Below, one piece after another: positions 1,933-25,033 of a stretch of DNA of 64,000 bases. The stretch is taken from the NCBI GenBank assembly GCA_030704615.1, contig CM060734.1, forward strand, positions 7,254,001 to 7,318,000, written 5' to 3'. Each line of letters starts with the position of its first letter. Position 1 is the first letter of the stretch. The DNA comes from Takakia lepidozioides (lineage: Eukaryota > Plantae > Bryophyta). The notes beneath the pieces are model-generated. The model was given only the letters and a program-made list of their open reading frames with translations, was not told the origin of the DNA and did no database searches. The translations under genes were made by a program, and so were the position numbers.

Positions 1933-3741
1933 ATGAAGCCTAGGGAAGGCCAGAGAGGATTTCAGATCCAGAGGTCTCTCCCTTCATTCTCAAGTCAACA
2001 ACAGACGAGTGTGTCATGTTGGGATTGTGGAGGACCCCATGTCAAGAAGGATTGCCCGAAGAGAGGCAAAGGACCAACACAGGCACAGCCTACACAATTA
2101 CAGTGTGGGCATTGTGGCAAGTATGGGCATGAGGAGGCCCATTGTTATGACTTGCACCCTGAGCTACGGCCACGCCAGTTCCAAGGGAACAATGGTGGCC
2201 GAGGACGAGGCAATGTAGTTCAGAGAGGTAGATGAGGCAGAGGTCGTGGTGGAGGTCGTAACCAAAACCAAGGAGCACAGGGTCAGGATCAAGGTCATGA
2301 CCAAGGCATGGTGGATAGACTTGCCCAGCTAGAGCAACGTCTTGCTGCCATGGCCACTACTCATGTTGCGCCAGCTCCAAGGCCTGAGGTTCAAGCTCCA
2401 TCTGCACAACCTCCTATGCCTAGGGAAGACCAGATTGATATGGGCTTCATGTGTGGAGCCGCACTTGCAGGGCCATTGCAAGTGGACTCTACAGCTGTTG
2501 TTACTCGAGCAGCAACTCGAGCTCATGAGCCAAAGGGAATGGATGTGGATTTTGATCCACAAAGGGGGGAAGCAAGTCGACAAACAAGGCTTCCACAGTC
2601 TTTTACATTGGCTAAGACAGTGCCAACTACGCCATCGATGGCACCTGCTCGCTCTACGTCAGAGGTGGAGCCACGAGTGTCATTGAGGAGAGTTGGTGTG
2701 GCTCGGGAAATGCTAGTGGGTGATGCTGCAAAGCAAGGTGCAGCCAGTACGTTGTTGGGGGCGGCTACAGCAATTTGTCAAACTCCATTATTTTCTGCAA
2801 TGCCGGAGATTCGGCCAGCTGCTGTGTTCAGACTAGCAGCTAGACTTTGTGAGAGTGGTGATGCATCGGCACTATCTGCGGAGATAATAGATAAGGTGCA
2901 GTCTATGGATGCCCTAGATTCGAGGGTGAAGACAGCCACAACTGCGCCATGGCAAGCGGCAGCTGCAAGGTTGCAAGAGCTGCAAGCTAGGTCAGCCATT
3001 GAGCGCAACATGGTGACTCCTGGAGTAGTCCTGGTGGACAATCAGGATGGAGTGTTTCAATTGAGTGGTCCAGCCGGGAGGAGGTATAGGCCACTGCAAG
3101 TCTTGTTGGATTCGGGTGCACAGCCATTGATGTTGGGGAGAGCAGTAATTGCAGGCTTGGGCCTTACAGAGGCGGATTTGGAGCCTTGCCCTTTCCAAAT
3201 TCAAACATTTTTGCGTGGTTCAGAGAAGGCGCGAGGGATCACACGCCATGAGCTCTTCATCCGATTGCAGCCAGATCATCATACGGACGGCTCAGTCATG
3301 AGAGCCAAAGCCATTGTTACAGACGCGATGTCATACGATGTGCTTGTTGGTGGGGCGGTGTTGTACCCCATGGGATTTACTCTGGACTTTTGGGAGGAAA
3401 CGGCATCCTACAGGCCGGAGTGGCAATCAGGGGATGGCCGACGTGCACTACTCCTAGTGCGGTTTGTTGGGAATATAGTGGTGGATCATAGGAACATGAT
3501 GCCCACATTGGCTGCATTCTCAGGGGTGGTGGCTCGGGGTGGTGAGCTCTTGGAGGCCAATAGCCATGCAGATGATAGGCCACCATCTGATGAGGAGTAC
3601 AAACAACTGGCATACAAGGTTGAGTTGCTTCCTCATGTGCCTGTTCATATTCCACTGTGGGGTACGGTTGGGAATTTGCAGCAAGTAGCAGGGCGAGTGT
3701 GTGCACCAAGCATGGCAGGAGGCCTTTCCATTGATGAGTGA
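1933..3741 (+). pseudogene. Copy 1 Gag C-terminus (two Zn knuckles) and aspartic protease
   Basis: CWDCGGPHVKKDC, CGHCGKYGHEEAHC and VLLDSGAQPL. ORFs 1933 and 2308 share a frame, separated by one TGA. Confidence 0.85.
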
Positions 3742-3819
3742 GGGGAGTTCAGTGATATCACCTGGACCTCCTCAGTTAGCTCATTTGGACACAGTGCCCA
3801 TTACCTGGCAGCCACCTGA

Positions 3820-4720
3820 CTCAGGGATTTGTTTGCTAGACCTGTTTGGAGGCACGAGCTCTGGGCTTACAAGAGTGTTGCAAGCTGGGATTAAAGTACG
3901 AAAGTACTTGTATGTGGAGAAGGATGAGATAGCTCAGCGTATTTCTATGCGCCACGTTGCCTTGCTCACACACCAGTATCCTGAGTTGCTGCCTCTCTCA
4001 GCAATTCAAGGGTACCAAAAGGCCTTGCCAGCAGACATTACCTTGTTGGGGGCAGATGATTTGGGCCGGCATGGTGCAATTGACTTGGTGATGGCTGGAT
4101 GGCCTTGCTAAGGACACTCTCCCGCAGATCATGGGAATGACTTGCATGATGTAAGGTCGCATTTGTTTTGGGAGATGTTACGAGTGTTGCGTGACTTGCA
4201 GGTGAGGCAAGTGCAACCTCGGGCCAAGGTTATGGCTAGTGTGCATCAGGTGCGGTCTTGGATTGGACCAGCTATATTATTGGATGCAGCTGCAGTGGGT
4301 TCACGGGCACATAGGCCTAGGTTGTGGTGGACCAATCTTGCACCACCAGAGTTGCTTAAGAGAGCCTATGATTCCATTCAACGGCCACCCAACCTCACGG
4401 TTGAGGGCATTTTGGACCAAGGGAGGCAACCACAGAGAGTGCGATATGATGACCATCCACCTTTGGCGGTGGTCAATCGAGTGGGGCAACCACGTGCGGC
4501 CTTGCCTACACTCATGAGTTTTCCCTCGTCTCATGCTTTTCGAGACAATGGTCCAGGGTTGATTTGGGACAATGCGCTACAACAATTGGTGGAGCCTAGT
4601 GCGGATGAGCGAGAGCGGGCAATGGGGTTTGCCACGGGCACTACAGCTATGCCAGCTTTGTCAGAGGCATCACTACGTCAGGTGTTGGGTCAGGCAATGG
4701 ATCTCAATTGCTTGACTGGC
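3820..4720 (+). pseudogene. C5 cytosine DNA methyltransferase domain within pol, copy 1
   Basis: Motif I LLDLFGGTSSG, motif II YLYVEKD, motif IV IDLVMAGWPC followed by TAA, motif VIII AHRPRLWWTNL, motif IX ERERAMGF, motif X LGQAMD. The ENV segment is deleted in this copy. Confidence 0.9.
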
Positions 4721-5761
4721 TTGTGCATGGCTGAGCAACGGAGATTGCAAGCATTGGTGGCTATTTCTGCACTTCCATTGGATATTACACCCTCTCTGCC
4801 AACCGGGACGGTGGAGGCAGTGAGTGGGGGCGAGCACAAGATCATGGAGTGCAAACACCCATGACAGATGTGGGATGAGATGCAGAAAGAGAGAGTCATT
4901 GGATCTCTCAAGGAATATGAGGAGTGGAGAGAGCCGTACATGGAGGATCAGTTGGAGGCCAAGGTGGCTAAGGCTCTTGAAGAGGTTGATGATGTTTCTT
5001 TGCGGAGGATGTTCTCAAGGTGGCTATGGTGGAGCAAGTGGAGGCTACGCCACAGTCAGGGTGGGCAGACAAGGCCCAAGAGGTTGCTATCTAGCAATCA
5101 AAGTATACGTCTCCTACCTCCAAGCCTGGTGTACCCAAGGTTGCAGTCACTGAGGACAATTGGGAACCAGATGTTGGACCTACAGTCACCGGAGGAGAGA
5201 GACGGAGGATCCGGCGATTTCTAAAGGCTTACAGAAATTGCTTTGCCTTCGGTTTGAAGGATTTGGGCGGTTTGAAGGGCCAGGAGATTCGTATTGATTT
5301 GCCAATTTTAGTGACATGCCAATTTTTCGAAGGCCCTACAGGTATAGTGACATGGAGAGGTCATTGATCCAGTCACGGACTATGGAGTTGTTCGAAGCTG
5401 GATTGGTGGAGTTGTCAAGCGGTGAGTATGCCTCAGCAACGGTGATGCTAGCTCATAAGGATATCTATGGCAATTGGACAGAAAGAAGGATGTGTGGGGG
5501 CTATCGTCCTGTGAACCGTCAGACTAACGATAGATATGCCATGCCAACTCCAGAGGAAATCTTTGATGCCACTGGGCATGCGAAGGTGTTTAGCACATTG
5601 GACTTACGATTGGGTTATCACCAGTTGCCAATCAAAGAGACTGACAAGCAAAAGACGTCATTATGTGGGAATGATTGTTTGTACTAATGGCGCTTCCTAC
5701 CATTTGGGTTGAAGAATGCTCCTGCAGAGTTTCAGAGGGTCATGGATAAGATTCTTGCAGG

Positions 5762-6113
5762 TGTCAAGTTAAATAAACACAGTGTGAAACTAACTAGAAT
5801 AAAGCTAGTTATTTGTATTTAACACTTGGATTTAGTCCAAGTGTTAAGTCAGGTGTCAAATTTAGTTTGACACCTGAACCGTCTTATCTTCACGAGAGCG
5901 TCAGTCGTGCGGCTCATCTCTCTCGAGTTGAGTCTGCACGACCGAGCTCCTTCATCGTTCAGAATCTGAGTGTGCTTATGAAGGGATGATAGGTTGTTGT
6001 GGGGTGGAGTCCCCATAGCTTGGGGTGCCCCTGGCTTGACTACTATTTTTAAAGAGTGATGGTGTTGGATTTCATGTTTCTTGTGTGAATAGTGTGTTCT
6101 TAGTTTTCTATCA
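5762..6113 (+). repeat. Terminal segment B of copy 2 (5' end)
   Basis: TGTCAAG...TATCA. Near-identical to 24609-24947 (which has a 13-bp deletion). Diverged relatives at 17298-17615 and 29532-29819. Confidence 0.9.
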
Positions 6114-6131
6114 CTCGAGAGAGATGAGCCG
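6114..6131 (+). promoter_or_regulatory. Putative self-complementary primer-binding site
   Basis: CTCGAGAGAGATGAGCCG directly after B is the exact reverse complement of 5910-5927. It does not begin with TGG. Confidence 0.7.
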
Positions 6132-6389
6132 ATCTAGTTTTCTAGTGCTAAGCTAGATATGATGTTTTTGTTTTTAAGCACTATTAGAATATAGCTTGGT
6201 CACGGGGAGCCTGCGGTTAGACTGGCTATGTGTGCCGAGTGGAGCAGAATAGGAAGGCGGAAACCATTTGAAGTGTTGCTGGGGATGCCCGTTTGTTTGA
6301 GGCTGGTGGAAGCATTCGCAGGGGTTGCCTACACATTCTCATTTTGGAGTATGCGCTATAGGTAATCCTGTTGCGGTGGGGGAATGCTT

Positions 6390-7850
6390 GTGCGTGAGCC
6401 TGTGAGCCCAGTCAGGCTCACGCCACGTCAGCAAGGTTTCCCACGTGCAAGACCTAATTCCGCGGATGCCACCTATTTCCACGGAACTGTAGGCGACTAC
6501 CACGCCCCAGATTTGCCAACATTAATTTCCAAGAAGTCTCATCCCTCATCCAAATCTTAGTCGGATGAGAAATCACGGGTGGTTTGTGGATGATTTTTGT
6601 CCACGGGCACAGGATATTTCAGAGAGTACAATGTCATGTTGCGTAATGAACACGAAGGAGAATGAGTTTGTTCTGACGAAGTTCCATCCCCCTAATTCAC
6701 ATCCACTTTTCATTGATAGACGTTCTCCAAACAAACACCAGGAAATCCCTAAAGCGTCTTTGCGGTTTATGAAAAAATATGGTGCAGAACAGGTTGGCAA
6801 GACTTACAATGCAAGACACGAAACGAAGAACAACAAGGCCAACAACCATACAAAATACAAAAAACAGTCCTAAAAAAAGAATGCTTTCATTTCTTAAATC
6901 AAGGTTGCGTCAACGCAAGGTTGATTTGCATCACCCCCCAGGGAGGAAAAAAAAAAAATCAAAAAATCAAAAAATGATGCTTTCATTTCTCAAATCAAGG
7001 TTGCGTCAACGCAAGGTTGAATTGCGTCACTCCCCAAGGAGAATATATATATATATATATTCAAAAAATGATGCTTTCATTCTCAAATCAAGGTTGTGTC
7101 AACGCGAAGGTTGATTTGCATCACTCCCCCCAAGGAGAAAGAAAAAGAAAAAATCAAAAAATCAAAAAATGATGCTTTCATTTCTCAAATCAAGGTTGCG
7201 TCAACGCAAGGTTGATTTGCATCACCCCCAGGGAGAAATAAAATATAAAAAATAAAATGAAATCGTATGTCTGTCGGTGTATGTCACGTCATCAATCGTG
7301 TTGTGCGTGCGTCTACCATTTGTTGCATTCGTTCCTCAAACTCATTTGTTCATTTGCGAACACATCAAGTCACATTCAAATGAACATTCTCGGAAATCAA
7401 CCTTGTGTTAATACAAAGTTGATTTCGAGAACTTCAAATCAACCTCATGTTAACACAAGGTTGATATCAGTTCTAGGAAATCAACCTCGTGTTAATACAA
7501 GGTTCATTTTAAGTTCTTTGAAATCAACCTCGTGTTAATATAAGGTTGATTTCAGTTCTAGGAAATCAACCTCGTGTTAATACAAAGTTCATTTCAAGTT
7601 CTCTGAAATCAACCTCGTGTTGACACAAGGTTGATCTCTGCGGACGCCCTAAACCCTTAACCCATCTCACCTTCAGATGGTGAAATCCCACGGTTATAGG
7701 CCCACCATCTTTGTGGTGACGTGGCACAACCTTGGGTGGGTTCATGCCACATCAGCACCAGCACCACGTCAACGTTGTGAGCGTAGGCTCACGCCACATC
7801 ACCATTGTGTGAGCGTACGCTCACACGCTCACACGCCAGGCTCACACGGT
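6390..7850. mobile_element. MITE-like non-autonomous insertion with internal palindromic repeats
   Basis: GTGAGCCTG / CAGGCTCAC inverted ends. Four AAATCAAGGTTGCGTCAACGCAAGGTTGA-type units (6895-7230) and about six AAATCAACCTCGTGTTAATACAAGGTTGATTTC-type units (7393-7635). No TSD resolved. Confidence 0.5.
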
Positions 7851-7899
7851 AGCGTCGTTGCTTGCGGTGGGGTCCTTGGTGTCAAAAGCAGGCTGCTGC

Positions 7900-9280
7900 G
7901 GTGGTGGGAGGATCAGCGTGGCCGCGGCGGATGGTTTTGCTGCAGAGCTCGTGATTCCCAAACGAGGGGATCAGCGTGATGGAATTCCAGCAAGGCAAGT
8001 GGGTTGTATCCACCCGTCGTTGCTTCCGGTATCATGCTTGCATCTCCCAGCACTAAGGGATGAGTGGCCGAGCTGTTGGGAGGGGGAAGCTTAGCGAGAA
8101 CCACATTGGCGTGATTGTAGAAGTTGGCGAGGTGGAGCAGGTCCGTTCAGACTGTGGATGTGCGGGCCGAACTTGACCAATCGATCAATGACAAGGGATG
8201 GAGGCTTATTGCACCATTGGAGACTCGCTTGTCATGTACAGGGAGAGGTAGTCGGTAGTGGCGAGGAGGTCGTATGCTTTCTTTACTTCTCCTTGCACCG
8301 CGGTCCCGGAGGCCATCTCCATGACGAACGCCATGTTGCCTTTCAAGAGCGCGATGCCATCGGTCGCAGGGTGTAGTAGTTCGATTTTGAGGATCCCATA
8401 CCACATCTTGTTTCTATGTTTTGTGAATGGCGTGATTGGATTGTACAAGACAGTTCCCAGGGGGCGGCTATGTCTTCATACCTGACTGCATGAGCTTCTG
8501 CTGGTGTGAATGTGGCTGCTAGGTGCTTTTACTGTAGGAATCCGAAGCATTTGAGCCTGATTCCAGGCCTAATCGCTGGTCTCGCATGTGCGTGGGCGGC
8601 TATGTCTTCATACCTGATTGCATGAGACCACATGAGACCCCCTGCTTGATACTCTGCATAGAAAAGGGTCTTGAATGCAAAGGTGCCCGACCAAGGAAGC
8701 CAGCCAGTTGGGTTAACAACTGCTCTCAAATGTACCGTGCGAGAATCTAATTTCCAGGGTCGCTCCATATACGTTGGGAACTGGTATGAATTCTTTTGTG
8801 AGATGGGTTGTTCCACCGAAGGTAAAGCGCTGGCAGGAAAAACCCCTATTTGATTTGGATGTATTCTACCCTGGGCCGCATATGTGTTTTGTTGGCGGAT
8901 CAAACCAGTCTCGGCCAAGATGGTGCATGTTTCAAACATTGCGGCTGCATGAATTGACGGTGCCATAGATTGTACAATCTTGGTAAAACCAACGGAAGAA
9001 GCAGCATACGTGGTCTTGGGAAATGATCAATGCACTGGTCTGATCCAGAAATTTCCCTTCCTGCATTATCGACATCAGTTCTGCCCAATAACCAAGCGAG
9101 TGTAGCTGTGGCACTTTGAACGTCAATTGAAAGGCTTGTAAGCTGGAATCTGATGCGGCTTGAAGAATCTGACCGTGGAGGGGTCAGATAAAAGGGAGCA
9201 GGGAAGGATGACAATTTAGGCATTAATGTGGTGTCATCTGAAACTGCCGGTCCCTTGAAGACAGAAGGGGCCCAGCTCAC
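7900..9280 (-). pseudogene. Degenerate antisense ORF of unknown function in the copy 2 leader
   Basis: Successive minus-strand protein-like ORFs (8900-9280, 8529-8966, 8206-8448, e.g. WYGILKIELLHPATDGIALLKG). A ~32-bp duplication at ~8463 and ~8595. Confidence 0.4.
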
Positions 9281-10135
9281 TACACGATCTGCTCGGCCTA
9301 TGTTAACAATCTAGAACTTGAGGGCAGCCTATGTCAATTCCATGTAAAGGCTTACACAATTAGTGATAGCGGATCTGTTGCTGCCACCTTGAAAAATCAG
9401 CACGCATGAAGGGCTGTAAGCGTTCTTGATCAAGTTATTAAGCTCTGGTGCTTTCCGGGGTTGCATTGTAAGTGCTCCTGCTTTTGTTGGGAATATTGGT
9501 GCAAAGGATTAAGGCTCGACATAGCCATAGGTCTCGGCTGGAGATGACAGCATCTGCGGATAGCAGTTCGGTGGGAGCTAGGAGGTAAGAAGCTGCAAGA
9601 TGGAGTGGAGGCGAAGGATCGAAGCTCGGGAGTCGGCATAGCTACGGATCTCGACTGGAGGAGAGCAGGTCACTGTGAACCAAGAGCTGTTGTGGTGCAT
9701 TTGTAAACACAATTGAAATCCTGGGAAATATAGGTCACGCTACCAGGGAGTCTGTGGTGAGAACTACATGAACACGTTTGGAACCTATTAAGATAACGTG
9801 GGAACAATGTTTAATGGCGAGAACGTTTTGGTGTTAAAAAATTTATTTAAAAAAAAAATAAAAAATAAAAATAAAAAACCTTTTTGATCTAATTTCAATT
9901 ATTTAGAGCCTAATTGGTCATATCTTTGTCAAATGGACTCTGTTTGACTCAGTTTTTGGGGGGATAGCTGCAGAAAGGGGAAATCTACCTATCTAGACCC
10001 GGTTTTAATTTTTTGGACTCTGCTAAAAATCTATGGAATTTTTTGAGTGTGAGTGTGCTATGAAAGATCCACAATTCTGTTTCTAGAACCTATTGTGGTC
10101 TACATGAGAGACAAATATGGGGATGTCCTCCTTGT

Positions 10136-10871
10136 ATGGCTGGGGGAAATGAGGACGTAATTGAAAGACAGGTCTCTTCTCTTAGCCTGTGCACACAAGG
10201 GGACAAGATTTATGTTTCTCAAGGAACTCAGACTGATTTGAGTGGAGACCAGTTGGACGAGTTGATTGCATACTGGGAGTCAGGCATTAGCAGTAGACAA
10301 CAAACTGCTGTAGTTGGCGTTGATGGCCTCAATATTGCTTTGGACAGTCAGAACTCTGTTGGAGCCAGCAGTTTTGCAGCTGTAGGTGAAATACCAAAGT
10401 GGGTGAAAGCTAGGCTTGGAACACAGCCAAAGACAGCCCCGGGGACCAAGGTGTTCAGCCACAAGGCCGTGGTGTACTGGAGCAGAGGAGCAGGAGCTAC
10501 ACAAGTTTGTGCAATCAGACATGGTTGTAGCCGGACACGCTCTGCACAAGGCAACCACCAGCGATGACAAGTTTGTTCTGCTTGAAGAAGATGCAATCAT
10601 TCGCAATGAGGACACCCGCAACCATCTCAAAGCTTTCGAGTTGAGAGACTGTCAGACCCTACCTTTATTTTCTTTAGTGTTCAGTGAGCGGGAGATAGGG
10701 GAGTATTGCTTTGTCTCTACCTGGCAGAAAGAGGAGGAGGGTTGGTTAGAGCGAGCTACTGTAGCTTGGGACAAGGTTAGTGGCAGGTTTCTGGACATAG
10801 ATATACCTCCTACACCTTACCATCATGCAGAGCGAGGCACTTTGAGAGAAGTCTGGCAGTTGATAGCATAG
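10136..10871 (+). pseudogene. Extra sense ORF upstream of gag (frameshifted, unknown function)
   Basis: Overlapping ORFs 10136-10567 and 10416-10871 with globular-protein composition, downstream of an AT-rich promoter-like tract (9830-9910). Confidence 0.4.
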
Positions 10872-11391
10872 ATCAGGATTAGATCTTGCTTGGTCGGGCT
10901 TCTATTCTTCCCCTCCCTCTCTTTACCATTTTCATTACTTTGTACTTGTAGTTGCCAAAGCCTCTCTTGGTGGAGGCCAGTCAGTCTGGGGTTTTGGGCT
11001 GGGATATTCTGCAGGATCAGCATTGCAGATGGATTTTGGTGTGGGGGTGTTGATGTTTTGATTTCTTGTGTTTGGATCCCCCCCAACACCTGCATGCTTG
11101 ACTGTGCGCCATGTTGGTTTTGTGTGGGCGCTTGCTTTCATAGGGATTAGGCCGGATTTGATCACCGATCAATCCTAGAGTATGCTGTCGGTGGTGAGGC
11201 TGGAGTGATGACCAGCAAGACCACCAGTGTTTCTTCTATGGTGAGACTGGGTTGATGACCAGCCAACCATAGGAGTTCTTGCGGTGGATGCAGGTGCAGG
11301 TGCCCTGAGCCACTGGGATATGACCCTTAAACTGCAACAGGTGCCCACCCGTGTCACTATTAGAATTAGTAATAGAGCCTTATAGTGTCAC

Positions 11392-11768
11392 GTGGGGGAG
11401 GTGCACATTGTGAGTGTCATCACGGAGTTACCCAAGGGTTTTGAGGGGAGTACGGCTACAGGCAGTAACAGTGAGAGTGGGTTCACAAGACGAGGTATTC
11501 GGTTCAGACCACCTTCACCTCCACCCTCAACTAGTGCAGAGTCAGACATAGACTCGAAGGCTTCATCAACAGGTGTGCAGTTTCATTCGCCATTGTTGTG
11601 GGACGACATGGAGGACATATATGGAGCTACCAAGGGGCCTCGTAGGTACTCTGGAGCTGTGGGCACAATTGAGCTGGATGACTTTATCCAGGAGTTCGAC
11701 AGCTGGTGTGATTTGCAGCAGATGCGCAATCCATAGCTGTTCACCCCATTCATGGCGTGGAAGGGACT
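11392..11768 (+). pseudogene. Copy 2 gag N-terminus (continues at 17782)
   Basis: YGATKGPRRYSGAVGTIELDDFIQEFDSWCDLQQMRNP matches 23-265. It rejoins as AWKGLFQHLEG across the copy 3 insertion. Confidence 0.88.
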
Positions 11769-12204
11769 TGTCGTGCGCATACATATTGCTACACAACTAC
11801 ATCGCTGTCCAAAACCACACAACACATGTGCACACCACACACTAGTATACCACTAGTCCACCACTAGTCCAACCACTAGGCTACAACTAGTCAGTCACTA
11901 GGCTGCCACTATGCTGCCCACTATGGTAGTCACTAGTCCACACAATCGCCCCCCTAGCTGGTGCTTAGGTCCCTCTAAGTCTAGGAAGCCACAAGATGTG
12001 ATAGTGACCATAGCCTCACTAAGTCCTCCACCACTATCCCTACTACACTCAAACTCGATAGATCAAGAGGCCGGGTGCAAGAGTTGCCCCATCATTAGTC
12101 GCCATCTTGCAACCTGTGAACTTGAGCTTGGGATCTCATGTATTGACTCCTATGAGCTTGGCCTCCCATGTCTTGTTAGCTGCCTCCAGTCATGTCCACT
12201 GCCA

Positions 12205-15181
12205 CTATCCCAAGCAGTGTGGACACAACCAATCTCCGTCAGGAACCTTCTCAAGAGGTGGTGTCAAGCATCCCATATGCCAACCCCTTGAGCATCGATC
12301 ACACACCAGCATGGTGGCTGCCCCTTTGGCAGACCCACAGAGCATGCACCTCAAACCTGCAGGTACCACTGCCAAGTTTGGGTCAACTCTGCCATCGACA
12401 TTGGGAAGGTGACATGGCGCACAATTACGCACATGGTCCTTCCAAGTCATGCCATCCCGACCCTCCAAGATCAGGACCCCTGAGAGCAACACCTCTCGAA
12501 CCCTCAGAATAACACGCCCTGCAGTAATATCCAAGGTCGTATGAGCAGTCTGCTGCAGATAGACGTAGTCACCAGGGTTGAATCTCCGAACCCCAGGACG
12601 ATAGCCCCCACCACGTATGGTAGCATACCTCAACGTATCACGATGTTGTGCAATGGCAAGGTTCTCGAAAGCCATGGGCATGACTTTCTTGAACAACTCT
12701 GCACGCTGCTCACATGCACGTGCCCACACGTCCGGATCGTCAAGATTAAGAACTGTAGCAGCTTCTCTGCGAATGGATGTAGGCAAATCCGGCTCTCGAC
12801 CAAAGAGAAGAAAGTATGGTGAGAAGGAGGCAAGTGATGCTTGCTTGCTGAACCTGTAGCCCATGGCTAACCAGGGTAACTGAAGGTCCCAATCTCCTAG
12901 GTGTCCCTTCTGCAAGCCATACTTGCGCAAACCCCTCTTTACTATCTGAACAACTCTCTCTGCCAAGCCATCGGCCTCAGGATGATCCCGAGAAGTGGTG
13001 CGGTGGTCTATCAAGGCCTTGTCACACAAAGCCTGAAACTCCCCCAAGAACTCTCTCCCTTGGTCCGTGAGTACCTCAGCTGGAGCACCGAATCGGCTAA
13101 GCACACAATCCAAGAATGCATACGCAGCTCCCTCACTAGCCTTATCAGGCAATGGAACCAACTCAATCCACTTGGAGAGAGTGCTCCACCATCACCAACA
13201 CGTACTTGTTGTGGCGCATGGTCAGTGGCAACGGCCCTGCGAAGTCAAGACTCCACCTGTAGCCCAATCCCATGATCGGAAGAGGGTGCAATTGTGGAGT
13301 AGGGGCGTTGAATGAAGCACGCACCCTGTCACACACCATGCACCTAGCCACAAATTGTTGCACCTCTGTGTGCATACCACGCCACCAATACTGCCCCTGC
13401 AGTAGACTATGAGTGCGTCGCACCCCAAAATGCCCTAACTCCTCATGGGCATGCCGCACTAACCGTGCCCGCTATGTTGGGTGAGGCACAATCCTCACTC
13501 GACCATCCTCCCACACTCGGAGCAGGTGTGTCCCCTCCCACTTGAACCTCTTGGCTCGTTGTAGGATCCGATCCCTCTCCTTGGCAGTCATAGTGGCTGC
13601 AGTGTCTCCAGTGCGAAGATAGTCCAACACAGCTGAATCCTCATGTATATCTTTGGCGCCACCTTGCTCATTGCTGGCCTCAGGGTCCTCAGACACTTGA
13701 TCTACGGTCATCCCTATTGCAGGTCCAACCTGGCCTTCCGCTGCCAAGATACACAGAAATGCAGATGCATGCCATCCGGGCACCATCTCCTCGTCCGTCT
13801 CACCATGCCACCGAGCTCCAGTGTCATCCTGTTGGCTCGTGCATGGATTGCGACTCAACCCATCTGCATTGCGATTGACCAAACCCGGTCGATGCACAAC
13901 CTGAAAGTCATATTCTTGAAGGATGAGTGCCCACCATGCAAGCTTCCCCGTAAGCTTGTCTGACTCCATCAACCACTTGAGTGGTTGGTGATCTGTGACA
14001 AGGGTGAAGAGATTACCGTATAGATAGGACCTGAAGTGTGCCACGGCCCACACTGCAGCTAAGCATTCTCCCTCATATGAGCTATACTTAGACTCTGCAA
14101 CGTTGTTCGAGCGGCTAACATAAGCCACTACAAACTCTCTTCCCTCATCATCCACCCGTGTGAGCACCGCTCCAAGCCCCAGCATGCTCCAATCTGTATG
14201 CAACTGAAAAGGACGCCCCCTAATAGGCCGTCTCAAGATGGGCGCCGAGGTCAACCTCGCCTTGAGCTCTTGAAAAGCTTGTTCTTGCTCATCTTCCCAC
14301 TGCCACTCCTGGTCCACCTTGGTCAGCTTGGTTAGAGCCTTTGTAATGGCACTAAATTCCTTAACAAACCGTCTATAATAGTTTGCTAACCCCATGAAAG
14401 CTCGAACTCGGCTCACATCCGTGGGGCGTGGAACCTGTGCAATGGACTCTACCTTAGTCTGCTGTACCCCCAATCCTCCAGGATATATCATGTGACCCAG
14501 ATACTCAATCTGGTTGTGGAAAAACTTGCACTTTCCCGGATGTAACTTTAATCGGTGCGCCCTCAAGCGCTCAAATACCCCCTGAAGGTGTCTCTCATGC
14601 TCTTCCACCGTAGCACTAAAGATAATGATGTCATCTATGTAGCACCGAGCAAACTCCACCCCTGCTAGAATCTTGTCCATGACTCTCTGAAACTCAGCAG
14701 GAGCGTTTTTAAGCCCAAATGGTAAGAACCGCCACTGGTATAGGCAATCCTTCCCGTGCTTATTGATCCCCCAGAATTCCATCTTTTGCTTATCCGCCTC
14801 CTTGATCGGCAACTGGTGATATCCGGATCGTAAATCCAACGTGCTAAAGACCTTGGCATGCCCAATGGCATCAAAGATCTCCTCTGGTGTCGGCATGGCA
14901 TACCTATTGGACTTGGTCTGACGATTTACAGGCCGGTAATCACCGCACATACGTCTCTCCGTCCAATTGCCATAGACATCCTTCTTGGCTGGCATCACTG
15001 TGGCTGAAGCATACTCTCCCCCAGATAGCTCCACCAAACCAGCCTCCCAAAGGTCCTGAGTTCTCATCTGAATCAAGGACCTCTCCATGTCACTGTATCT
15101 ATAGGGTCTCCGAAAGATTGACGTGTCAGTAGCCAATTCAATGCGAATCTCTTGACCCTTCAGTGCTCCTAAGTCCTTCAA
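12205..15181 (-). pseudogene. Copy 3 pol: RT, RNase H, integrase, PHD finger
   Basis: YIDDII; FQLHTDWS, TDHQPL, NADGLSR; HEELGH...CMVC, SLDFAG, LTDQGREF, GLAERVV; C-terminal CMLC..CDRC..WHMGC..WLCPHC. One stop (13472) and one frameshift (~13175). Confidence 0.92.
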
Positions 15182-15601
15182 ACTGAAGGCAAAGCAATTC
15201 CTGTAAGCCCTCAGGAACCACCGTATACGTCGTCTATCTCCGCTGGTGACAATGGGTCCAATGTCAGGCTCCCAATTGTCCTCCGTAACTGCAACCTTAA
15301 GTCCAGTGGGCTTAGAGGTAGAGGACGCGTCCCATGGTTGCTATGCCGCAACCTCTTGAGCAGTACTCCCTGCCTGCTTAGTCAATGACAAAGCCTCATC
15401 CTGCCCTATCATCTCATCCTTGAGGACCTCATCAACCCGAGAAGAATCCCCAACCTCATCCATCACAGCTGCCTTGGCTGCCAACTCCCTCTGAACCTCG
15501 AGCGCCTCCCACGTGTGCCATGGATGTCTACACCCCGTGGTCCTCACCGGCTCACCCCCACTCGCTGCCTGTACCGTCTCGGTAGGCAGAGAGACCGTCG
15601 A

Positions 15602-17218
15602 CGGGCATGGCAATGGATTGCGAGACTCGAGGTCGGGTCTGTTTTGGGAGATGGGGCGGTTTTGTGCCACTTGCAGCTTCATCAAGCTGTATCTCCAGCA
15701 TACATCTTGGAGAATGTGCCACTGATGGGCGATTCTCGGGCCAGGGTGATGGCCAGTGTGCATCAAGTCCGGTCGTGGCTTGGGTCAGCAGTGTTGCTGG
15801 ATGCAGCTGCAGTGGGATCACGGGCTCATCGTCCACAGCTATGGTGGACTAACTTGATGCCACCCGCACTGCTCAAGCGTGCATTTGATGGGGTGCAGCG
15901 GCCAGTACACCTCACAGTGGATAGCATTTTGGACATAGGGAGACAGTCTCAACGTGTGAGACACGATGACCGTTCACCTTTGGCAGTGGTCAACAGGGTG
16001 GGTCAACCACGAGCAACATTACCTACACTGCTCAGCTTCCCAGGATCCCATGCTTTTCGGGATGGTGGACCTGGCCTCCTGTGGGATGCTCAGTTGCAGC
16101 AGTTAGTGAAGCGTAATGCCGACGAGCGAGAGCGAGCTATGGGGTTTTCCACTGGGACCACGACGGTGCCTTCTCTTCCTGAGGTGATGAATGCCCTTGG
16201 CAGGGCCAACCTGCCACTACCAGATCAATGGAACCAACCCGCTCCAAATCCTGCGCCCCCAGTAACGAAATGTCTGCTGGCAAGCCCTGTTGATATCCAC
16301 GAATTGCAAACACCGACAACAACTCAGGGTACCGCTGCACCAACTGAGCAACATGGCGAAGTGAAACGCGTTGTGCAGTCTCATCCCTCTCCACATACAG
16401 GTAACGCCGAACTCGTACACCTGCCTGTAATACAGCAGCCAATCCAGTGCTGATCCCACCAAACAAGTCCAGAAGACAAATGCCTTCATCCGGATACTGC
16501 CACACAATAGGTGTGGTGTCCAATGGAGACAACTGAGGTGGTCCTGGTGCAATCCCCGCACTCTCCTCCTCTCCTGACGGTACAAAAGCCTCCACCTAGG
16601 CTTGTTGCACCCGTCGATCAGCATCTCGCTGCAAATCCTTGCTCGTGCCCCACAATGGAGTCTGAGCAACCATGGTAGGCAACTCCGCCATACCATACAT
16701 GTTATCCTGCTTCCCGGAGGTGGTACATCCTCTGAGTGAGCGTTGCCCTCAAGCAACTCTCTAGGCCAACTCACTGCCGTTGTGAATGCTGCTAGTATCG
16801 GCATCTTGCCTTGCTGGGCAACCGCAACTCCTCCTATGAACGTCACAGGGAGCTGCACACGCCGGCCCTCCCCTGACTGCCATGCAGGCCTATAGGAAGC
16901 TGACTCCTCCCAAAAATCCAGGGTGAAGCCCATGGGGTACAACACTGCCCCACCAACCAGGACATCGTATGAGACCGGGTCTGTCACAATGGCCTTGGCT
17001 CGCATCACTGAGCCATCTGTAGGGTGATCCGGCCGTAGTCTGATAGCCAACTCACGCCGTGTCATGCCCCGAGCTTGCTCCGATCCTCCCAGAGACGTCT
17101 GTATCTGGAAAGGACAAGGCTCCATATCCGCCTCCGTGAGGCCCAAGCCTGCAATAGCAGCTTTGCCCAGCATCAGTGGCTGAGCTCCCGAGTCCAACAA
17201 GACCCGCAGTGGCCGGTA
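15602..17218 (-). pseudogene. Copy 3 protease and DNMT, with DNMT motifs V-IX inverted onto the plus strand (15602-16183)
   Basis: Minus strand: LDSGAQPL, LLDLFGGISTG, IDLVVAGWPCQGHSS. Plus strand: GLRDSRSGLFWEM, YILENV, AHRPQLWWTNL, ERERAMGF. Confidence 0.88.
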
Positions 17219-17777
17219 CTAGTGTGTGGTGTGCACATGTGTTGTGTGGTTTTGGATAGCGATGTAGTTGTGTAGTGATATGTATGCGCACAACAGCTGT
17301 CAAGTTATTTTACCACTAGTGTGAAACTAGCTAGGAAAATAGCTAGCTTTTATATATTGACATTTGGGATTGGCCCAAGTGTCAATCCAGGGGTCAAGGC
17401 AGATTTAGGCCCTGGAGTGGTTATCTTCATGGCAAGCGCGGAAGGCTCATCTTTCTCGAGTTGAGCCTCACCGCACCTAGCTATGGCGCCGTAGTGTGGA
17501 TTCCCCATGGCGTGGGGTGCACTTGGCTTGACTTGTATTTGAGTGATGAGGTTATATATGCATGAGTTTATGCTTCAGATTTGTGAGCTCGTGCTTGTAT
17601 TCTTCTTCTTTATCACTCGAGAAAGATGAGCCTTCCGCGCTTGCTGGGAAGATAACCACTCTAGGGCCTAAATCTGCCTTGACCCCTGGATTGACACTTG
17701 GGCCAATCCCAAATGTCAATATGTAAAAGCTAGCTATTTCCTAGCTAGTTTCACACTAGTGGTAAAATAACTTGACA
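17217..17777. repeat. Partial A + GC + B followed by an inverted copy of the first ~163 bp of B
   Basis: A ends 17295, GC 17296-17297, B 17298-17615. Positions 17616-17777 are the near-perfect reverse complement of 17298-17460. Confidence 0.92.
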
Positions 17778-17781
17778 GACT

Positions 17782-20700
17782 GTTCCAGCATTTGGAAGGC
17801 CCGCCTATGGACGATTACCACGAGTTCAGGCGAGGACATGAAGCAGAGATTGAGGAGTGGAGGATGTATTGGTCACCTGACTACGTCTCCATTACTCGAG
17901 GCACGACGCGACCAGTAGCTGCATCAGCACCAATATCTCCCACTGCCAGCACTAGTAGTGGAACAAGTAGTGCCGGTACTTCTGCAGGTGGTACCAGTTC
18001 AAAAGGTGCTACTACTCCTCCTGCCACGACTACAACACATGTGCCTAGATTCAACCCGATGGTGGAGTTCTTCCAGGAGTTGCGGAGGAACTACCAAGGT
18101 GTACAGACAGAGAAGCTGCGAAGTTTGCAAGACTTCCAGCGCAAACCCAGTGAGAGCCTGCGAGAGGCGTACACTTGTATGAGGCGCTTGATAAGTGTGA
18201 CCCAAGGGGTTACTGAAGCTCAGGCAATCCAATTTTGGTATGGAATTTTGGACAAGGAGCTCAGGAGAAGGGTGCGGGATGCAACCCTGTTACAAGCAGC
18301 CCAACCCACATTAGCAGATGTGTTTATGCTGGCTGAGCGGATTGAGCTCAACATGGTGGAGGAGCGAGTTGTTACCATTGGATTTGGCAAAGACATGCCT
18401 ACACGAGGCGCAGCTACCAGCCCACAGGCACAAGGGACTGCCCAACAGCGTGGTCAGGGGGGCAAGGTTTCCCAACCCAAATTTCATGGAGCTTACAGGG
18501 GACCTCAGGTGCAGAGGCCAGTAGCATCTTTTGCAAGCCAACAGCAACCAGGGGTGATATGTTGGACATGTGGAGGACCCCATGTCAAGAGAGATTGCCC
18601 AGAGAGTGGCAAAAGGCCGGCACAAGCATAGCCTGCACAGTTGCAGTGTGGGCATTGTGGCAAGTATGGGCATGGAGATGCCCAGTGTTATGACTTGCAT
18701 CCTGAGGTGCGCCCAGGCCAGTTCCAAGGGAACAATGGTGGCCGGGGGTGAGCTGGACCAGCCCAGAGAGGACGAGGTGGCCGGGCATGAGGTGCAGGCC
18801 AAGGGCAAGCTCAACATGGCCAAGGACGCGGAGGTCAGGGTGTTGACCAAGGCATGGCCAACCGGCTTCAGCAGCTAGAGCAGAGGCTCGCTGCCATGGC
18901 TACAGCTCAGGTAGTACCGGCTCCCAGGCGAGATGGTCCACCTCCTGCTCTTAAGGGAGGAGATATGGGAGGCATGGGATTCATGTGCGGAGCAACACTA
19001 CCACTAGAGCAGGTGGAGTCTACTGCAGCCATGACTCAAGGAGCACAAGTTCCTGAGCCACGAGGTGCAAAAGTGGAGTTGGATCCACAATGTGGGGAGG
19101 TAAGCCGTTAGGCGAGGCTTCCTCAGTCATTCACATTGGTGGAGATAGTGTCGACGCCATCCATGGCACCTAGTTCTCGCCCGACTGTTATCGAGGCGGA
19201 GGTTACTATGCCATTGGGGAGAGCTATCCGTGCATCACTGACACCTGCTGCCAAGGCTAGTGCAGCCGGTGTGTTATTGGGGGCAGCCACCTCTGTGTGT
19301 CAAGCCCCACTGTTCTCGGCAACCATGATTGCGACGCCGGGGGTAAGACCAACTGCAGTGTTCAGACTAGCAGCAACACTCTGTGAGAATAGGGAGGTCA
19401 CTTCATCTTCTGCGGAGTTACTGGAAGGTGTAGTGGCAGAGCGATCCTCGGATTTGAGGGTTAAGACTGCCACGGCTGCGCCATGGCAAGCTGCAGCTGC
19501 CAAGTTAACGGAGCTGTCAGCTAGGCCAGCCTTTGAGCGCGCCATGGTGACACCTGGAGTTGTCTTGTTGGACAACCAGGATGACATTTTCTCTTTGAGT
19601 GGACCGGCAGGCAAGAAGTACCGGTTACTGCGGGTCTTGTTGGACTCGGGAGCTCAGCCACTGATGTTGGGCAGAGCTGCTATTACAGGTTTGGGCCTTA
19701 TGGAGGCGGATATGGAGCCTTGTCCTTTCCAGACAGACATCTCTGGGAGGATCAGAGCAGGCTCGGGGCATGACACGGCGTGAGTTGGCCATTAGACTGC
19801 AGCCGGATCATCCTATAGATGGCTCAGTGATGCAAGCCAAGGCCATTGTGACAGACGCGGTCTCTTACGATGTCCTCGTTGGTGGGGCAGTGTTATATCC
19901 CATGGGCTTCACCCTGGACTTTTGGGAGGAGTCAGCATCCTACAGGCCTGGATGGCAGTCAGGGGATGGTCGTCGTGCACAGCTCCCTGTGACATTCATT
20001 GGGGGTATTGCGGCTGCCCAGCGGGGCAAGATGCCAACACTAGCCGCCTTTACAGCTGCAGTTAGTTGGCCTGGAAAGTTGCTGGAAGGCAATGCCCATG
20101 CAGAGGATGTGTCACCTTCAGCAGAGCAGGATGACATGCATAGTACGGCGGAGTTGCCTGCCATGGTTGCTCATACTCCAATTGTGGGGTACGAGCAAGG
20201 ATTTGCAGCAGGCTGCTGATGGACGGGTGCAACAAGCCTGGGTAGAGGCCTTCGTACCGTCAGGAGAAGAGGAGAGTGCGGTGATTGCACCAGGACCACC
20301 TCAGTTGTCGCCATTGGATACCACACCTCTTGTGTGGCAGTGCCTGGATGAAGGCATATGCCTTCTGGACTTGTTTGGCGGGATCAGCACTGGATTGGCT
20401 GCAGTGCTGCACGCAGGTGTACAAGTTCAACGTTACCTGTATGTAGAGAGGGATGAGACTGCACGACGCATCTCACTACGCCATGTTGCTCAGTTGGTAC
20501 AGCAGTACCCTGATTTGTTGCCAGTGTCTGCAGTTCGTGGATACCAACAAGCCTTGCTAGCAGACATTTCGTTGCTGGGGGCGCAGGATTTGGAGCAGGA
20601 TGGCTCCATTGATCTGGTAGTGGCAGGTTGGCCCTACCAAGGGCATTCATCAGCCGGGCATGGCAATGGATTGCGAGACTCGAGGACGGGTCTGTTTTGG

Positions 20701-23700
20701 GAGATGGTGCGGGTTTTGCGCCACTTGCAGCTTCATCAAGCTGTATCTCCAGCATACATCTTGGAGAATGTGCCACTGATGGGTGATTCTTGGGCCAGGG
20801 TGATGGCCAGTGTGCATCAAGTCCGGTCGTGGCTTGGGTCAGCAGTGTTGCTGGATGCAGCTGCAATGGGGTCACAGGCTCATCATCCACGGCTATGGTG
20901 GACTAACTTGATGTCACCCGCACTGCTCAAGCGTGCATTTGATGGGGTGCAGCGGCCAGTACACCTCACAGTGGATAGCATTTTGGACATAGGGAGACAG
21001 TCTCAACGTGTGAGACACGATGACCGTTCACCTTTGGCAGTGGTCAACAGGGTGGGTCAACCACGAGCAACATTACCTACACTGCTCAGCTTCCCAGGAT
21101 CCCATGCTCAAGAGGTTGCAGCATAGCAACCACGAGACGCGTCTTCTATCTCTAAGCCTGCTGGACTCAAGGTTGCAGTCACGGAGGACAACTGGGAGCC
21201 TGATGTTGGACCTATAGTCACCGGAGGAGAGAGATGACGTATACGGCGGTTCTTGAGGGCTTACAGGAACTGCTTTGCCTTCAGTTTGAAGGACTTAGGA
21301 GCACTGAAGGGTCAAGAGATTCGCATTGAATTGGCTACTGACATGCCAATCTTTCGGAGACCCTATAGATACAGTGACATGGAGAGGTCCTTGATTCAGA
21401 TGAAAACTCAGGACCTTTGGGAGGCTGGTTTGGTGGAGCTATCTGGGGGAGAGTATGCTTCAGCCACAGTGATGCTAGCCAAGAAGGATGTCTATGGCAA
21501 TTGGACGGAGAGACGTATGTGCGGTGATTACCGGCCTGTAAATCGTCAGACCAAGTCCGATAGGTATGCTATGCCGACACCAGAGGAGATCATTGATGCC
21601 ATTGGGCATGCCAAGGTCTTTAGCACTTTGGATTTACGATCCGGATATCACCAGTTGCCGATCAAGGAGGCGGATAAGCAGAAGACGGCATTCAGGGGGA
21701 TCAATGAGCACGGGAAGGATTGCCTTTACCAGTGGCGGTTCTTACCATTTGGGCTTAAGAACGCTCCGGCAGAGTTTCAGAGAGTCATGGACAGGATTCT
21801 AGCAGGGGTGGAGTTTGCTTGGTGCTACATAGATGACATCATCATCTTTAGGGCTACGGTGGAGGAGCATGAGAGACACCTTCAGGGGGTATTTGAGCGC
21901 TTGAGGGCGCACGGATTGAAGTTACATCCGGGAAAGTGCAAGTTTTTCCACAACCAGATTGAGTATCTGGGTCACATGATATATCCTGGAGGATTGGGGG
22001 TACAATAGACTAAGGTAGAGTCCATTGCACAGATTCCACGCCCCACGGATGTGAGCTGAGTTCGAGCTTTCATGGGGTTAGCAAACTATTATAGACGGTT
22101 TGTTAAGGGATTTAGTGCCATTACAAAGGCTCTAACCAAACTGACCAAGGTGGACCAGGAGTGGCAGTGGGAAGATGAGCAAGAACAAGCTTTTCAAGAG
22201 CTCAAGGCAAGGTTGACCTCGGCGCCCATCTTGAGATGACCTATCAGGGGGCAGCCTTTTCAGCTGCATACGGATTGGAGCATGCTAAGGCTTGGAGCGG
22301 TGCTCACACAGGTGGATGATAAGGGAAGAGAGTTCGTAGTGGCTTATGCTAGCCGCTCGAACAACGTTGCAGAGTCTAAGTATAGCTCATATGAGGGAGA
22401 ATGCTTAGCTGCAGTGTGGGCCGTGGCACACTTCAGGTCCTATCTATACGACAATCTCTTCACCCTTGTCACGGATCACCAACCACTCAAGTGGTTGATG
22501 GAGTCAGACAAGCTTATGAGGAAGCTTGCACGGTGGGCACTCATCCTTTAAGAATATGACTTTCAGGTTGTGCATCGACCGGGTTTGGTCAATTGCAATG
22601 CAGATGGGTTGAGTCGCAATCCATGCACGAGCCAGCAGGATGACACTCGAGCTCGGTGGCATGGTGAGATGGACGAGGAGATGGTGCCCGGATGGCATGC
22701 ATCTGCATTTCTATGTATCTTGGTGGCGGAAGGCCAGGTTGGACCTGCAACAGGGATGGCTATAGATCAAGTGTCTGAGGACCCTGAGGCCAGCAATGAG
22801 CAAGGTGGCACCAAAGATATACATGAGGATTCAGTTGTGTTGGACTACCTCCGCACTGGAGACACTGTAGCCACTATGACTGCCAAGGAGAGGGATCGGA
22901 TCTTACAACGAGCCAAGAGGTTCAAGTGGGAGGGGACACACCTGCTCCGAGTGTGGGAGGATGGTTGAGTGAGGATTGTGCCTCACCCAACACAGCAGGC
23001 ACGGTTAGTGCGGCATGCCCATGAGGAGTTGGGACATTTTGGGGTGCGACGCACTCATAGTCTACTGCAGGGGCAGTATTGGTGGCGTGGTATGCACACA
23101 GAGGTGCAACAATTTGTGGCTAGGTGCATGGTGTGTGACAGGGTGCGTGCTTCATTCAACGCCCCTACTCCACAATTGCACCCTCTTCCGATCATGGGAT
23201 TGGGCTACAGGTGGAGTCTTGACTTCGCAGGGCCGTTGCCACTGACCATGCGCCACAACAAGTACGTGTTGGTGATGGTGGAGCACTCTCTCCAAGTGGA
23301 TTGAGTTGGTTCCATTGCCTGATAAGGCTAGTGAGGGAGCCGCGTATGCATTCTTGGATTGTGTACTTAGCCGATTCGGTGCTCCAGCTGAGGTACTCAC
23401 GGACCAAGGGAGAGAGTTCTTGGGGGAGTTTCAGGCTTTGTGTGACAAGGCCTTGATAGACCACCGCACCACTTCTCGGGATCATCCTGAGGCCGATGGC
23501 TTGGCAGAGAGAGTTGTTCAGACAGTAAAGATGGGTTTGCGCAAGTATGGCTTGCAGAAGGGACACCTAGGAGATTGGGACCTTCAGTTACCATGGTTAG
23601 CCATGGGCTACAGGTTCAGCAAGCAAGCATCACTTGCCTCCTTCTCACCATACTTTCTTCTCTTTGGCCGAGAGCCGGATTTGCCTACATCCATTCATAG

Positions 23701-24262
23701 AGAAGCTGCTACAATTCTTAACCTTGACGATCCGGACGTGTGGGCATGTGCATGTGAGCAGCGTGCAGAGTTGTTCAAGAAAGTCATGCCCATGGCTTTC
23801 GAGAACCTTGCCATTGCACAACATCGTGATACGTTGAGGTATGCTACCATACGTGGTGGGGGTTATCGTCCTGGGGTTCGGAGATTCAACCTTGGTGACT
23901 ATGTCTATCTGCAGCAGACTGCTCCTACGACCTTGGATGTGACTGCAGGACGTGTTATTTTGAGGGTTCGAGAGGTCTTGCCCTCAGGCGTCTTGATCTT
24001 GGAAGGTCGGGATGACATAACTTGGAAGGACCATGTACGTAATTGTGCGCCATGTCACCTTCCGAATGTCGATGGCAGGATTGACCCAAACCTGGCAGTG
24101 ATATCTGCAAGTTTGAGGTGCATGTTGTGTGGGTCTGCTAAAGGGGCAGCCACCATGCTGGTGTGTGATCGATGCTATAGAGGTTGGCATATGGGATGCT
24201 TGACTCCACCTCTCGAGATGGTTCCTGATGGGGATTGGTTATGTCCGCATTGCATTGGATAG
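17782..24262 (+). pseudogene. Copy 2 polyprotein: Gag, Zn knuckles, protease, DNMT (~20350-21105), RT, RNase H, integrase, PHD (~24119-24253)
   Basis: ORFs 17792, 18854 and 19136 share one frame across point stops. LLDSGAQ; LLDLFGGISTG, GWPYQGHS, YILENV, HHPRLWWTNL; YIDDII; integrase DDE core; C4HC3 PHD. Confidence 0.92.
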
Positions 24263-24510
24263 TGGGAGTGGATACAACTATGGAAGGCCAACAAGAAATG
24301 CAAGGCCAAGCTACTAGGAGACCTTGAACACATGAGATCTTGGCTCAAGTTCACAGATTGCAAGACGGCAACTAATGATGGGGTTACTCTTGTACCCGGC
24401 CTCTTGGTCTATAGAGTTTGAGTACAATAGGGACAGTGATAGAGGACTTAGTACGGCTGTGGCTATTACATCTTGTAGCAACTGGAGTTAGAGGGACCTA
24501 TCCACCAGCT

Positions 24511-25033
24511 AGGGGGGCGATTGTGGTAGACTACTTTATTGTGTATATATGTGTGGTGTAGTTTGGACAGCGATGTAGTTGTGTAGCGATATGTACGCGT
24601 ACGATAGCTGTCACAGTGTGAAACTAACTAGAATAAAACTAGTTATTTGTATTTAACACTTGGATTTAGTTCAAGTATTAAGTCAGGTGTCAAGTTTAGT
24701 TTGACACCTGAACCGTCTTATCTTCACGAGAGCGTCAGTCGTGCGGCTCATCTCTCTCGAGTTGAGCCTGCACGACCGAGCTCTTTCATCGTTTAGAATG
24801 TGAGTGTGCTTATGAAGAGATGATAGGTTGTTGTGGGGTGGAGTCCCCATAGCTTAGGGTGCCCCTGGCTTGACTACTATTTTTAAAGAGTGATGGTGTT
24901 GGATTTCATGTTTCTTGTGTGAACAGTGTGTTCTTAGTTTTCTATCATTGTGGCAGACTACTTTATTGTGCATATATGTGTGGTGTAGTTTGGACAGCGA
25001 TGTAGTTGTGTAGCGATATGTATGCGCACGACA
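24511..25033 (+). repeat. Copy 2 3' end: PPT - A (24522-24606) - GC - B (24609-24947) - T - A (24949-25033)
   Basis: Two 85-bp A copies flank a B copy. PPT AGGGGGGCGA at 24511-24520. Confidence 0.9.

Follow-up and report, generated by a model that had tools for sequence, protein, structure and literature searches.

The question raised by a large insertion in the genome of Takakia lepidozioides is how reverse transcription is primed in an element whose primer-binding site (PBS) does not start with TGG and is complementary to a segment of the element's own repeat B. Here, the window denotes the whole 64-kb stretch of DNA that was analyzed, and its main features are listed in Table 1. In the original prediction, the 18 nt directly following B were stated to pair perfectly with a segment inside B (19 bp with the terminal A), and this pairing proved exact on recomputation: 5910-5927 and 6114-6131 are exact reverse complements, and perfect pairing continues over 5910-5928 and 6113-6131. 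Based on base composition, the chance of encountering the complement of an 18-mer within the 352-nt repeat B is about 1.6e-9. The TGG-type PBSs at 28401 (plus strand) and 39747-39736 (minus strand) served as controls, and in the preceding 600 nt their complements reach only 4 and 5 nt; at the 3' copy of B, where A takes the place of the PBS, the complement amounts to 4 nt. It also holds true that the site, starting with CTC, lacks the TGG start present in the PBSs at 28401 and 39736. A 17-nt block of the PBS/primer occurs six times in the window compared with 0.3 expected occurrences, and of these just that at 6114-6130 stands alone as a PBS; 17616-17632 was considered as a second PBS and rejected because it lies within an inverted copy, 163 nt long, of the beginning of B. 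In agreement with the earlier statement that this block is among the best-kept parts of both B types, 16 of its 17 positions are identical between them, compared with 70.8% identity over 178 columns. With its length and its position directly after the repeat, the duplex falls within the definition of a self-primer given in PMC6317226 (at least 10 bp, 0-5 bp after the LTR).

Table 1. Features of the self-complementary element and of its nested relative in the window.
Feature	Position	Strand	Remarks
Left target-site duplication CAGG	5758..5761	+	Within RT gene of older related element; partner CAAG at 25034-25037, one mismatch
5' repeat B (TGTCA...TATCA)	5762..6113	+	Probably distal U3 plus R-U5; first base is left insertion end
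TTATCTTCA at TATA position	5884..5892	+	26 nt before primer; common to both B types; putative promoter element
Predicted self-primer	5910..5927	+	Conserved core 5912-5927; 5928 pairs with last base of B
GGCTTGACT	6033..6041	+	Predicted partner of bases just 3' of primer (second helix); motif in three of four families
Primer-binding site	6114..6131	+	Directly after B; no TGG start
Nested, rearranged sister-subfamily copy	11769..17777	-	Exact 4-bp duplication GACT; strand change exactly at primer 3' end / B end
C5 cytosine methyltransferase frame	20044..21126	+	PF00145, E 1.8e-9; 3' side rearranged
Reverse transcriptase frame	21238..22008	+	PF00078, E 1.6e-33
Integrase C-terminal part ending in PHD finger	23276..24262	+	Without chromodomain
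Polypurine tract	24508..24519	+	
Repeat A, first copy	24520..24606	+	Probably proximal U3
A/B junction	24603..24612	+	Decayed GACA-GC-TGTC palindrome, intact at 29816-29825; proposed integrase cut site
Repeat B, 3' copy	24609..24947	+	Short deletion near start; followed by A, not PBS
Repeat A, terminal copy	24947..25033	+	Ends CGACA; right insertion end; one A common to end of B

The element is a Ty3/gypsy retrotransposon with split repeats in the order B-internal-A-B-A. Its domain order, gag-protease-C5 methyltransferase-RT-RNase H-integrase-PHD, contains the Ty3/gypsy succession gag-PR-RT-RH-INT with a DDE integrase (rve). Pfam matches in the window copies cover the C5 cytosine methyltransferase, RT, RNase H, the integrase core and the PHD finger, while gag was recognized solely by its position and CCHC-like motifs and is without a Pfam match; the closest solved structures are those of Ty3 RT/Pol (E 4e-69). 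A chromodomain after the integrase was not detected at E up to 1 in the window C-terminus or in P0004, P0006 and P0141, its place being taken by a PHD finger. Tyrosine recombinases were found neither in the 22 window frames scanned nor in four frames of the near-intact metagenome locus L021. The insertion (5762-25033) interrupts the RT gene of an older relative, with CAGG and CAAG at its two sides, and reads B, PBS, internal part, polypurine tract, A, B and A; identity amounts to 96.7% between its copies of B and to 94.2% between those of A. PBS and gag are separated by 5.4 kb of other material without a match to the relatives fetched, and the link between B and the coding region therefore rests on the target duplication and the identity of the repeats.

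The interrupted older element (1954-5761 plus 25034-27712) is a member of the same lineage that has just a polypurine tract and a diverged A at its end, and elements of this lineage are nested in one another twice in the window. At 29532-29868, the minus strand contains a truncated A-GC-B piece that belongs to the second B type and in which the GACAGCTGTC junction is intact. Between the PBS and gag of the large insertion, the minus strand carries a pectinesterase-like fragment (8529-9026; PF01095, E 9.5e-22), which is either a captured gene piece or a separate insertion. In L021, the gag-PR-methyltransferase frame (1369 aa) and the RT-RH-INT-PHD frame (1047 aa) are divided by just one in-frame TAG. 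Such TAG codons are located at L021:5083-5091, at about 5091, 21124 and 15340 (minus strand) in the window and near 9983 in L009. The context TAG-CAR-YYA, a read-through signal, is present in three window copies but in only two of 25 loci scanned.

Variation within the window's own B family was assessed by mapping public contigs from five runs to 5880-6170 and counting substitutions present at 3% or more; contigs of this kind give frequencies without linkage. Among 39 such substitutions, 36 fall within 5933-6113, none within 5912-5927 and one (6126, about 7%) within 6114-6129. Position 5911 shows G>A at 54% with no matching change listed at 6130, and compensation at the outer two pairs was not seen in the public contigs. 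As these outer pairs vary without a visible change of the partner, the conserved duplex amounts to about 16 bp. The stretches 5995-6036 and 6132-6170 are likewise without listed substitutions, so that conservation alone is weak evidence, and at the sequence level the conservation within the family lends modest support to self-priming.

The comparison across families is the decisive one. From 545 stretches confirmed in an RT alignment search, 80 metagenome loci were fetched, and these contain three further families, represented by L014, L021 and L068, the RTs of which are 41-75% identical to the window RT. Methyltransferase and integrase matches were obtained in the ten loci tested, the integrase being missing only from the truncated L068. 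The B repeats are largely unalignable between families beyond short motifs (best blastn match E 0.018). Every family nevertheless keeps a duplex of 13-19 bp, formed by a segment that lies 150-200 nt into B and the bases immediately following B, with lengths of 17 bp in L014, 16 bp in L021 and 15 bp in L068. Each of the four representatives pairs with its own PBS at 15 of 15 positions, compared with six to nine of 15 for pairing across families, and 13 of the 15 duplex columns feature two or more different types of Watson-Crick pairs. The covariation between the two sites that had been proposed as a check of the original prediction is thus present across four families.

Among individual copies the picture is less uniform. 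Copies of B on the PBS side were present in 22 metagenome loci, which represent 17 distinct insertions after merging of five duplicate pairs. The pairing exceeds all 100 shuffles in ten of them, in a test that is lenient insofar as the best of ten offsets is compared with a single-offset, single-base shuffle, and an eleventh copy, L062, attains 12 perfect pairs once a later end of B is taken. Six copies fail, including L029, L015/16, L078/83 and L087/88, which have a short duplex in the same register, while L022 and L019 keep no duplex. Departures from perfect pairing include G.U wobbles (L011, L063). The pairs of B copies in L014 are 92% identical and hence old, which makes decay the likely reason for the failing copies, although the failures stand. 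Family 3 is represented by one contig (L021) that is probably a collapsed assembly, its A-B-PBS end probably being a collapsed repeat. In L057/L058 (3710-4000), the PBS-side copy of B is inverted relative to RT, indicating a further rearrangement near the 5' end.

In each of the four families, the inner arm of the duplex is preceded by a TATA-like box at a distance of 23-32 nt. The distance is 26 nt in L021 and in the 3' B copies of L014, L030 and L011 and 31-32 nt in L055 and L068, while the window features TTATCTT instead of TATA, 26 or 23 nt before the inner arm in the two B types. The 5' copies of L014 and L085 are exceptions without an exact TATA match. In self-priming elements of fission yeast, the 5' end of the self-primer is the transcription start, located below a TATA box (bioRxiv 2022.12.06.519325; PMC4600332). 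With a TATA-like box one spacing upstream, the inner arm is likely the 5' end of the transcript, by analogy with Tf1. The earlier notion of tRNA-independent priming from a site about 150 nt inside B is thus supported with respect to self-priming, which is backed by covariation in four families, and needs one refinement: the primer is probably not internal but the transcript's 5' end, given the box 23-32 nt upstream and a B repeat that probably holds part of U3 plus R-U5.

When the predicted 5' ends were folded, the core primer/PBS helix was obtained at a probability near 1.0 in all four families. Besides the central duplex, which all four families have in common, the folds comprise a helix at the end of B in the window and a local hairpin in the bases following the PBS, and the 5' region is strongly structured overall (z -8.97). 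A second helix between the bases following the primer and the GCTTGACT motif is predicted in three families. In two families it competes with the last three to four pairs of the duplex (pair probability 0.02-0.23), so that the cut site is not fixed by folding. Upstream of the promoter position, B (5762-5877) folds into three strong hairpins, and the other B type has hairpins at similar places as judged by eye.

On these grounds, the element likely primes reverse transcription with the first 16-18 nt of its own transcript, i.e., by self-priming of the Tf1 type. Transcription would start at about 5910-5912, and the 5' end of the RNA would fold back onto 6114-6129. As in Tf1, the element's RT/RNase H, the RNase H domain of which is present, would cut near 5927/5928 and free a 3'-OH. 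Minus-strand DNA would then start at the last base of B and transfer to the second B, and plus-strand priming at the polypurine tract together with ordinary strand transfers would result in a cDNA with an LTR composed of A plus B.

The nested copy at 11769-17777 bears on two other explanations. Read on the minus strand from 17777, it consists of the first 163 nt of B up to the last base of the primer, followed by the complement of B from its last base and the complement of A, and its break falls exactly at the predicted primer-cDNA joint. The arms of this inversion differ at six of 164 columns, and a sequencing fold-back is thereby excluded. The copy may record priming by a longer read-through RNA or a DNA template switch through 17-18 nt of identity; it is a single case, and no strand-changing joint is listed in the public contigs of the window's B family. 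Taken as a long primer joined to minus-strand DNA, the copy would fit a model in which transcription begins at the first base of B or further upstream and the RNA is cleaved after about 165 nt, the primer being the 3' end of this longer 5' fragment as in models for split-repeat tyrosine-recombinase elements. We regard this as unlikely because the primer is preceded by TATA-like boxes at promoter spacing and complementarity does not extend beyond 13-21 nt. The template switch or a rare read-through transcript also explains the copy, and no further case was noticed among the 80 metagenome loci, 29 of which were scanned for inverted repeats. The same 163-nt inversion with its break at the same site could also indicate that the PBS position is a DNA relic, left by a template switch that copied an inverted piece of B beside the end of B, and the partial self-complementarity of the primer regions in L014 and L021 would favor such hairpin-driven errors. 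One accident, however, would not recur in the same register, with other letters and at similar length, across four families whose RTs are 41-75% identical to the window RT, and no family contains an alternative PBS of the tRNA type, which renders a relic very improbable.

Half-tRNA priming exists in plant copia lineages (PMC6317226), and the PBS might accordingly bind a host tRNA fragment or small RNA, the match to B being inherited, e.g., from a primer copy captured by B. Four unrelated PBSs would then need four different host RNAs, each of them copied into B at the same place. The PBSs of the four families start with CTC, CTC, CTT and TCT and not with the TGG that would correspond to a tRNA 3' end. 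ARAGORN detected no tRNA genes in the window or in 42 metagenome loci, and an Rfam search of 5700-6400 yielded neither a tRNA nor another RNA but three chance-level matches (best E 3.5), so that we consider a host RNA as primer highly doubtful. The strong structure of the 5' region (z -8.97) and the second conserved helix would also be compatible with a role of the duplex in packaging, dimerization or translation control, with priming taking place elsewhere. Such a role leaves unexplained that the downstream arm starts exactly where the second B joins A in other copies, a point marking the start of minus-strand DNA, and we attach next to no credence to it as an alternative to self-priming.

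If A and B together form one LTR as defined by the self-primer and the polypurine tract, the integrated ends lie inside the LTR. The insertions are not bordered by two identical LTRs but run from B to A, with target duplications outside B and A, and they have TG...CA termini and target duplications of 4 bp, within the 4-6 bp of Ty3/gypsy elements. The 4-bp duplications flanking B and A are exact in six of seven complete metagenome copies and contain one mismatch in L055; in the window, they are GACT/GACT (exact) and CAGG/CAAG. Five of the complete relatives are arranged B-int-A-B-A and two B-int-A. Split repeats of the X-coding-Y-X-Y type are found in the window and in L014, L055, L083, L085 and L088. 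The A/B junction is an ACA-NN-TGT palindrome in all four families, while the start of A as defined by the polypurine tract is not conserved (ATTGTGG, AGTTGTGG, ATACATG). At the joint of B to A, one base is common in families 1 and 2, the joint varies by one base in family 4, and L082/L085 contain about 136 extra nt from upstream of the polypurine tract. In family 4 (L045-L088), about three tandem ACGACAC-like motifs precede the terminal CA at the end of A, and these are possibly repeated integrase-binding sites.

This arrangement suggests, with the balance about even, that the cDNA ends are joined and that integrase then cuts inside the LTR. The end of B would be joined to the start of A, and integrase would cut the ACA-NN-TGT palindrome between A and B; the internal cut would produce the integrated order B-internal-A-B-A, a step drawn less firmly than those of priming. 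Random cutting of a symmetric two-LTR circle was rejected because the mirror form B-A-B-int-A is unseen: it occurs in none of seven complete copies, and among 17 PBS-side copies of B only L021 is preceded by A. A tyrosine-recombinase element was likewise rejected in view of the DDE integrase and the target duplications. AT-rich hairpins in L029 (minus strand) and L074 from a first junction scan were dropped as chance findings. In its widest form, the proposal concerns self-priming gypsy elements of a streptophyte lineage in which the DDE integrase ignores the RT-made ends, so that end-joined cDNA (a circle, a dimer or the product of an end-to-end jump of RT) is the obligatory substrate and is opened at the LTR-internal palindrome, self-priming having arisen or been acquired outside the chromoviruses; we give this proposal an even chance. 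If true, an obligatory end-joined substrate would explain the presence of DIRS-like repeats in a gypsy element.

A similar arrangement is known from Tf1 of Schizosaccharomyces pombe and from Tf1/sushi chromoviruses such as plant Tcn1, in which the PBS directly follows the LTR and is complementary to an LTR segment that starts where transcription is predicted to begin, downstream of a TATA box (PMC4600332; bioRxiv 2022.12.06.519325; PMC6317226). In contrast to Tf1/sushi elements, the element described here contains a PHD finger without a chromodomain, a C5 methyltransferase within the polyprotein and split repeats. The self-primer of Tf1 is 11 nt long, whereas the duplexes described here comprise 13-19 bp. 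The second helix joins the bases beside the primer to a motif in U5, about 70 nt ahead of the PBS, unlike the three-duplex 'pretzel' described for Tf1 with its two PBS-adjacent helices. In its mode of priming, the element probably resembles Tf1, but it is not classed with the chromoviruses of the Tf1/sushi group, because the test for a chromodomain was negative. A survey that demanded two equal terminal LTRs predicted self-priming in 12% of plant LTR elements, namely in Tcn1 chromoviruses and the copia lineage TAR; among gypsy elements, it ties self-priming to Tf1/sushi-related chromoviruses, and its available text leaves Marchantia and Klebsormidium unmentioned (PMC6317226). The TAR lineage (Houba, Osr-1) shares predicted self-priming (PMC6317226) but belongs to another superfamily with a different domain order and has ordinary LTRs.

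With regard to the repeats, KnitGypsy-Dnmt3 of Klebsormidium nitens is most similar, combining gypsy domains and a C5 methyltransferase in the polyprotein with DIRS-like split repeats (PMC5890265). Both features, the methyltransferase within a gypsy polyprotein and the split repeats, are present in the Takakia element. As far as the available text of PMC5890265 goes, the arrangement B-internal-A-B-A has been reported once in gypsy elements, namely for KnitGypsy-Dnmt3, for which neither a primer or PBS nor a target duplication or integration mechanism is given there. K. nitens RTs fall into the element's RT clade (support 100/100), while K. nitens proteins are absent from the matches of the methyltransferase search; those found are partial and show no methyltransferase domain, so that the likeness is one of description and RT clade. 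The repeat order also resembles that of split-direct-repeat tyrosine-recombinase retroelements (A-coding-B-A-B, e.g., SymbioDIRS-Dnmt3; PMC5890265). The element described here, on the other hand, has a DDE integrase (rve) and 4-bp target duplications. PAT and Ngaro belong to the same split-direct-repeat tyrosine-recombinase group. In foamy virus, integrase cleaves a palindrome in circular DNA at two-LTR circle junctions (PMC1180852); there, the palindrome is the LTR-LTR junction and its cutting restores normal linear DNA, whereas the site proposed here would lie inside the LTR and its product would be permuted. Gypsy-7a_cRei of Chlamydomonas, a gypsy element with a PHD finger and LTR 'subparts', is similar by description (bioRxiv 2022.06.16.496473).

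Protein relatives stem from Calypogeia, Marchantia, Riccia, Sphagnum, Closterium and Klebsormidium. In the RT tree, from which rows of fewer than 150 residues were left out and which contains unnamed outgroups and no named member of Tf1, sushi or Tcn1, the four families and sequences from liverworts, Closterium and K. nitens form a single clade (100/100). Eight distant RT loci from viral contigs (31-38%) served as outgroups only. Many gene models from Marchantia and Calypogeia (P0122-P0137) carry the annotation of a hypothetical protein or a methyltransferase; they share 51-63% identity with the element's methyltransferase and, based on this similarity, may be retrotransposon copies.

Self-priming itself is established; here, compensatory evidence from four families indicates its likely use by a gypsy lineage that lacks a chromodomain and whose relatives occur in liverworts and a peat moss as well as in Closterium and Klebsormidium. 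In the literature searched (subscription journals, theses and Repbase lay outside), we found neither self-priming in a chromodomain-less methyltransferase gypsy lineage nor an integration route via end-joined cDNA and an LTR-internal cut, and within the same scope the primer provides a first handle on the copying of gypsy elements with split repeats. Together with the polypurine tract it defines an ordinary LTR, inside which the integrated ends fall, and this opens the specific question of end-joined or circular cDNA as the normal substrate of an LTR-type integrase. Tools that demand two equal terminal LTRs would mis-delimit gypsy elements of this kind.

The window also contains several tandem arrays. 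Arrays of 53/106-nt units at 32393-33508 and 40367-41450 are present as two copies flanking a tRNA-primed gypsy element at about 35480-39760 and are probably located within its LTRs. Shorter arrays are found at 6852-7264 (about 96 nt), 7387-7638 (about 85 nt) and 58924-59602 (about 50 nt), the last of which consists of A+T-rich DNA with an internal inverted repeat.
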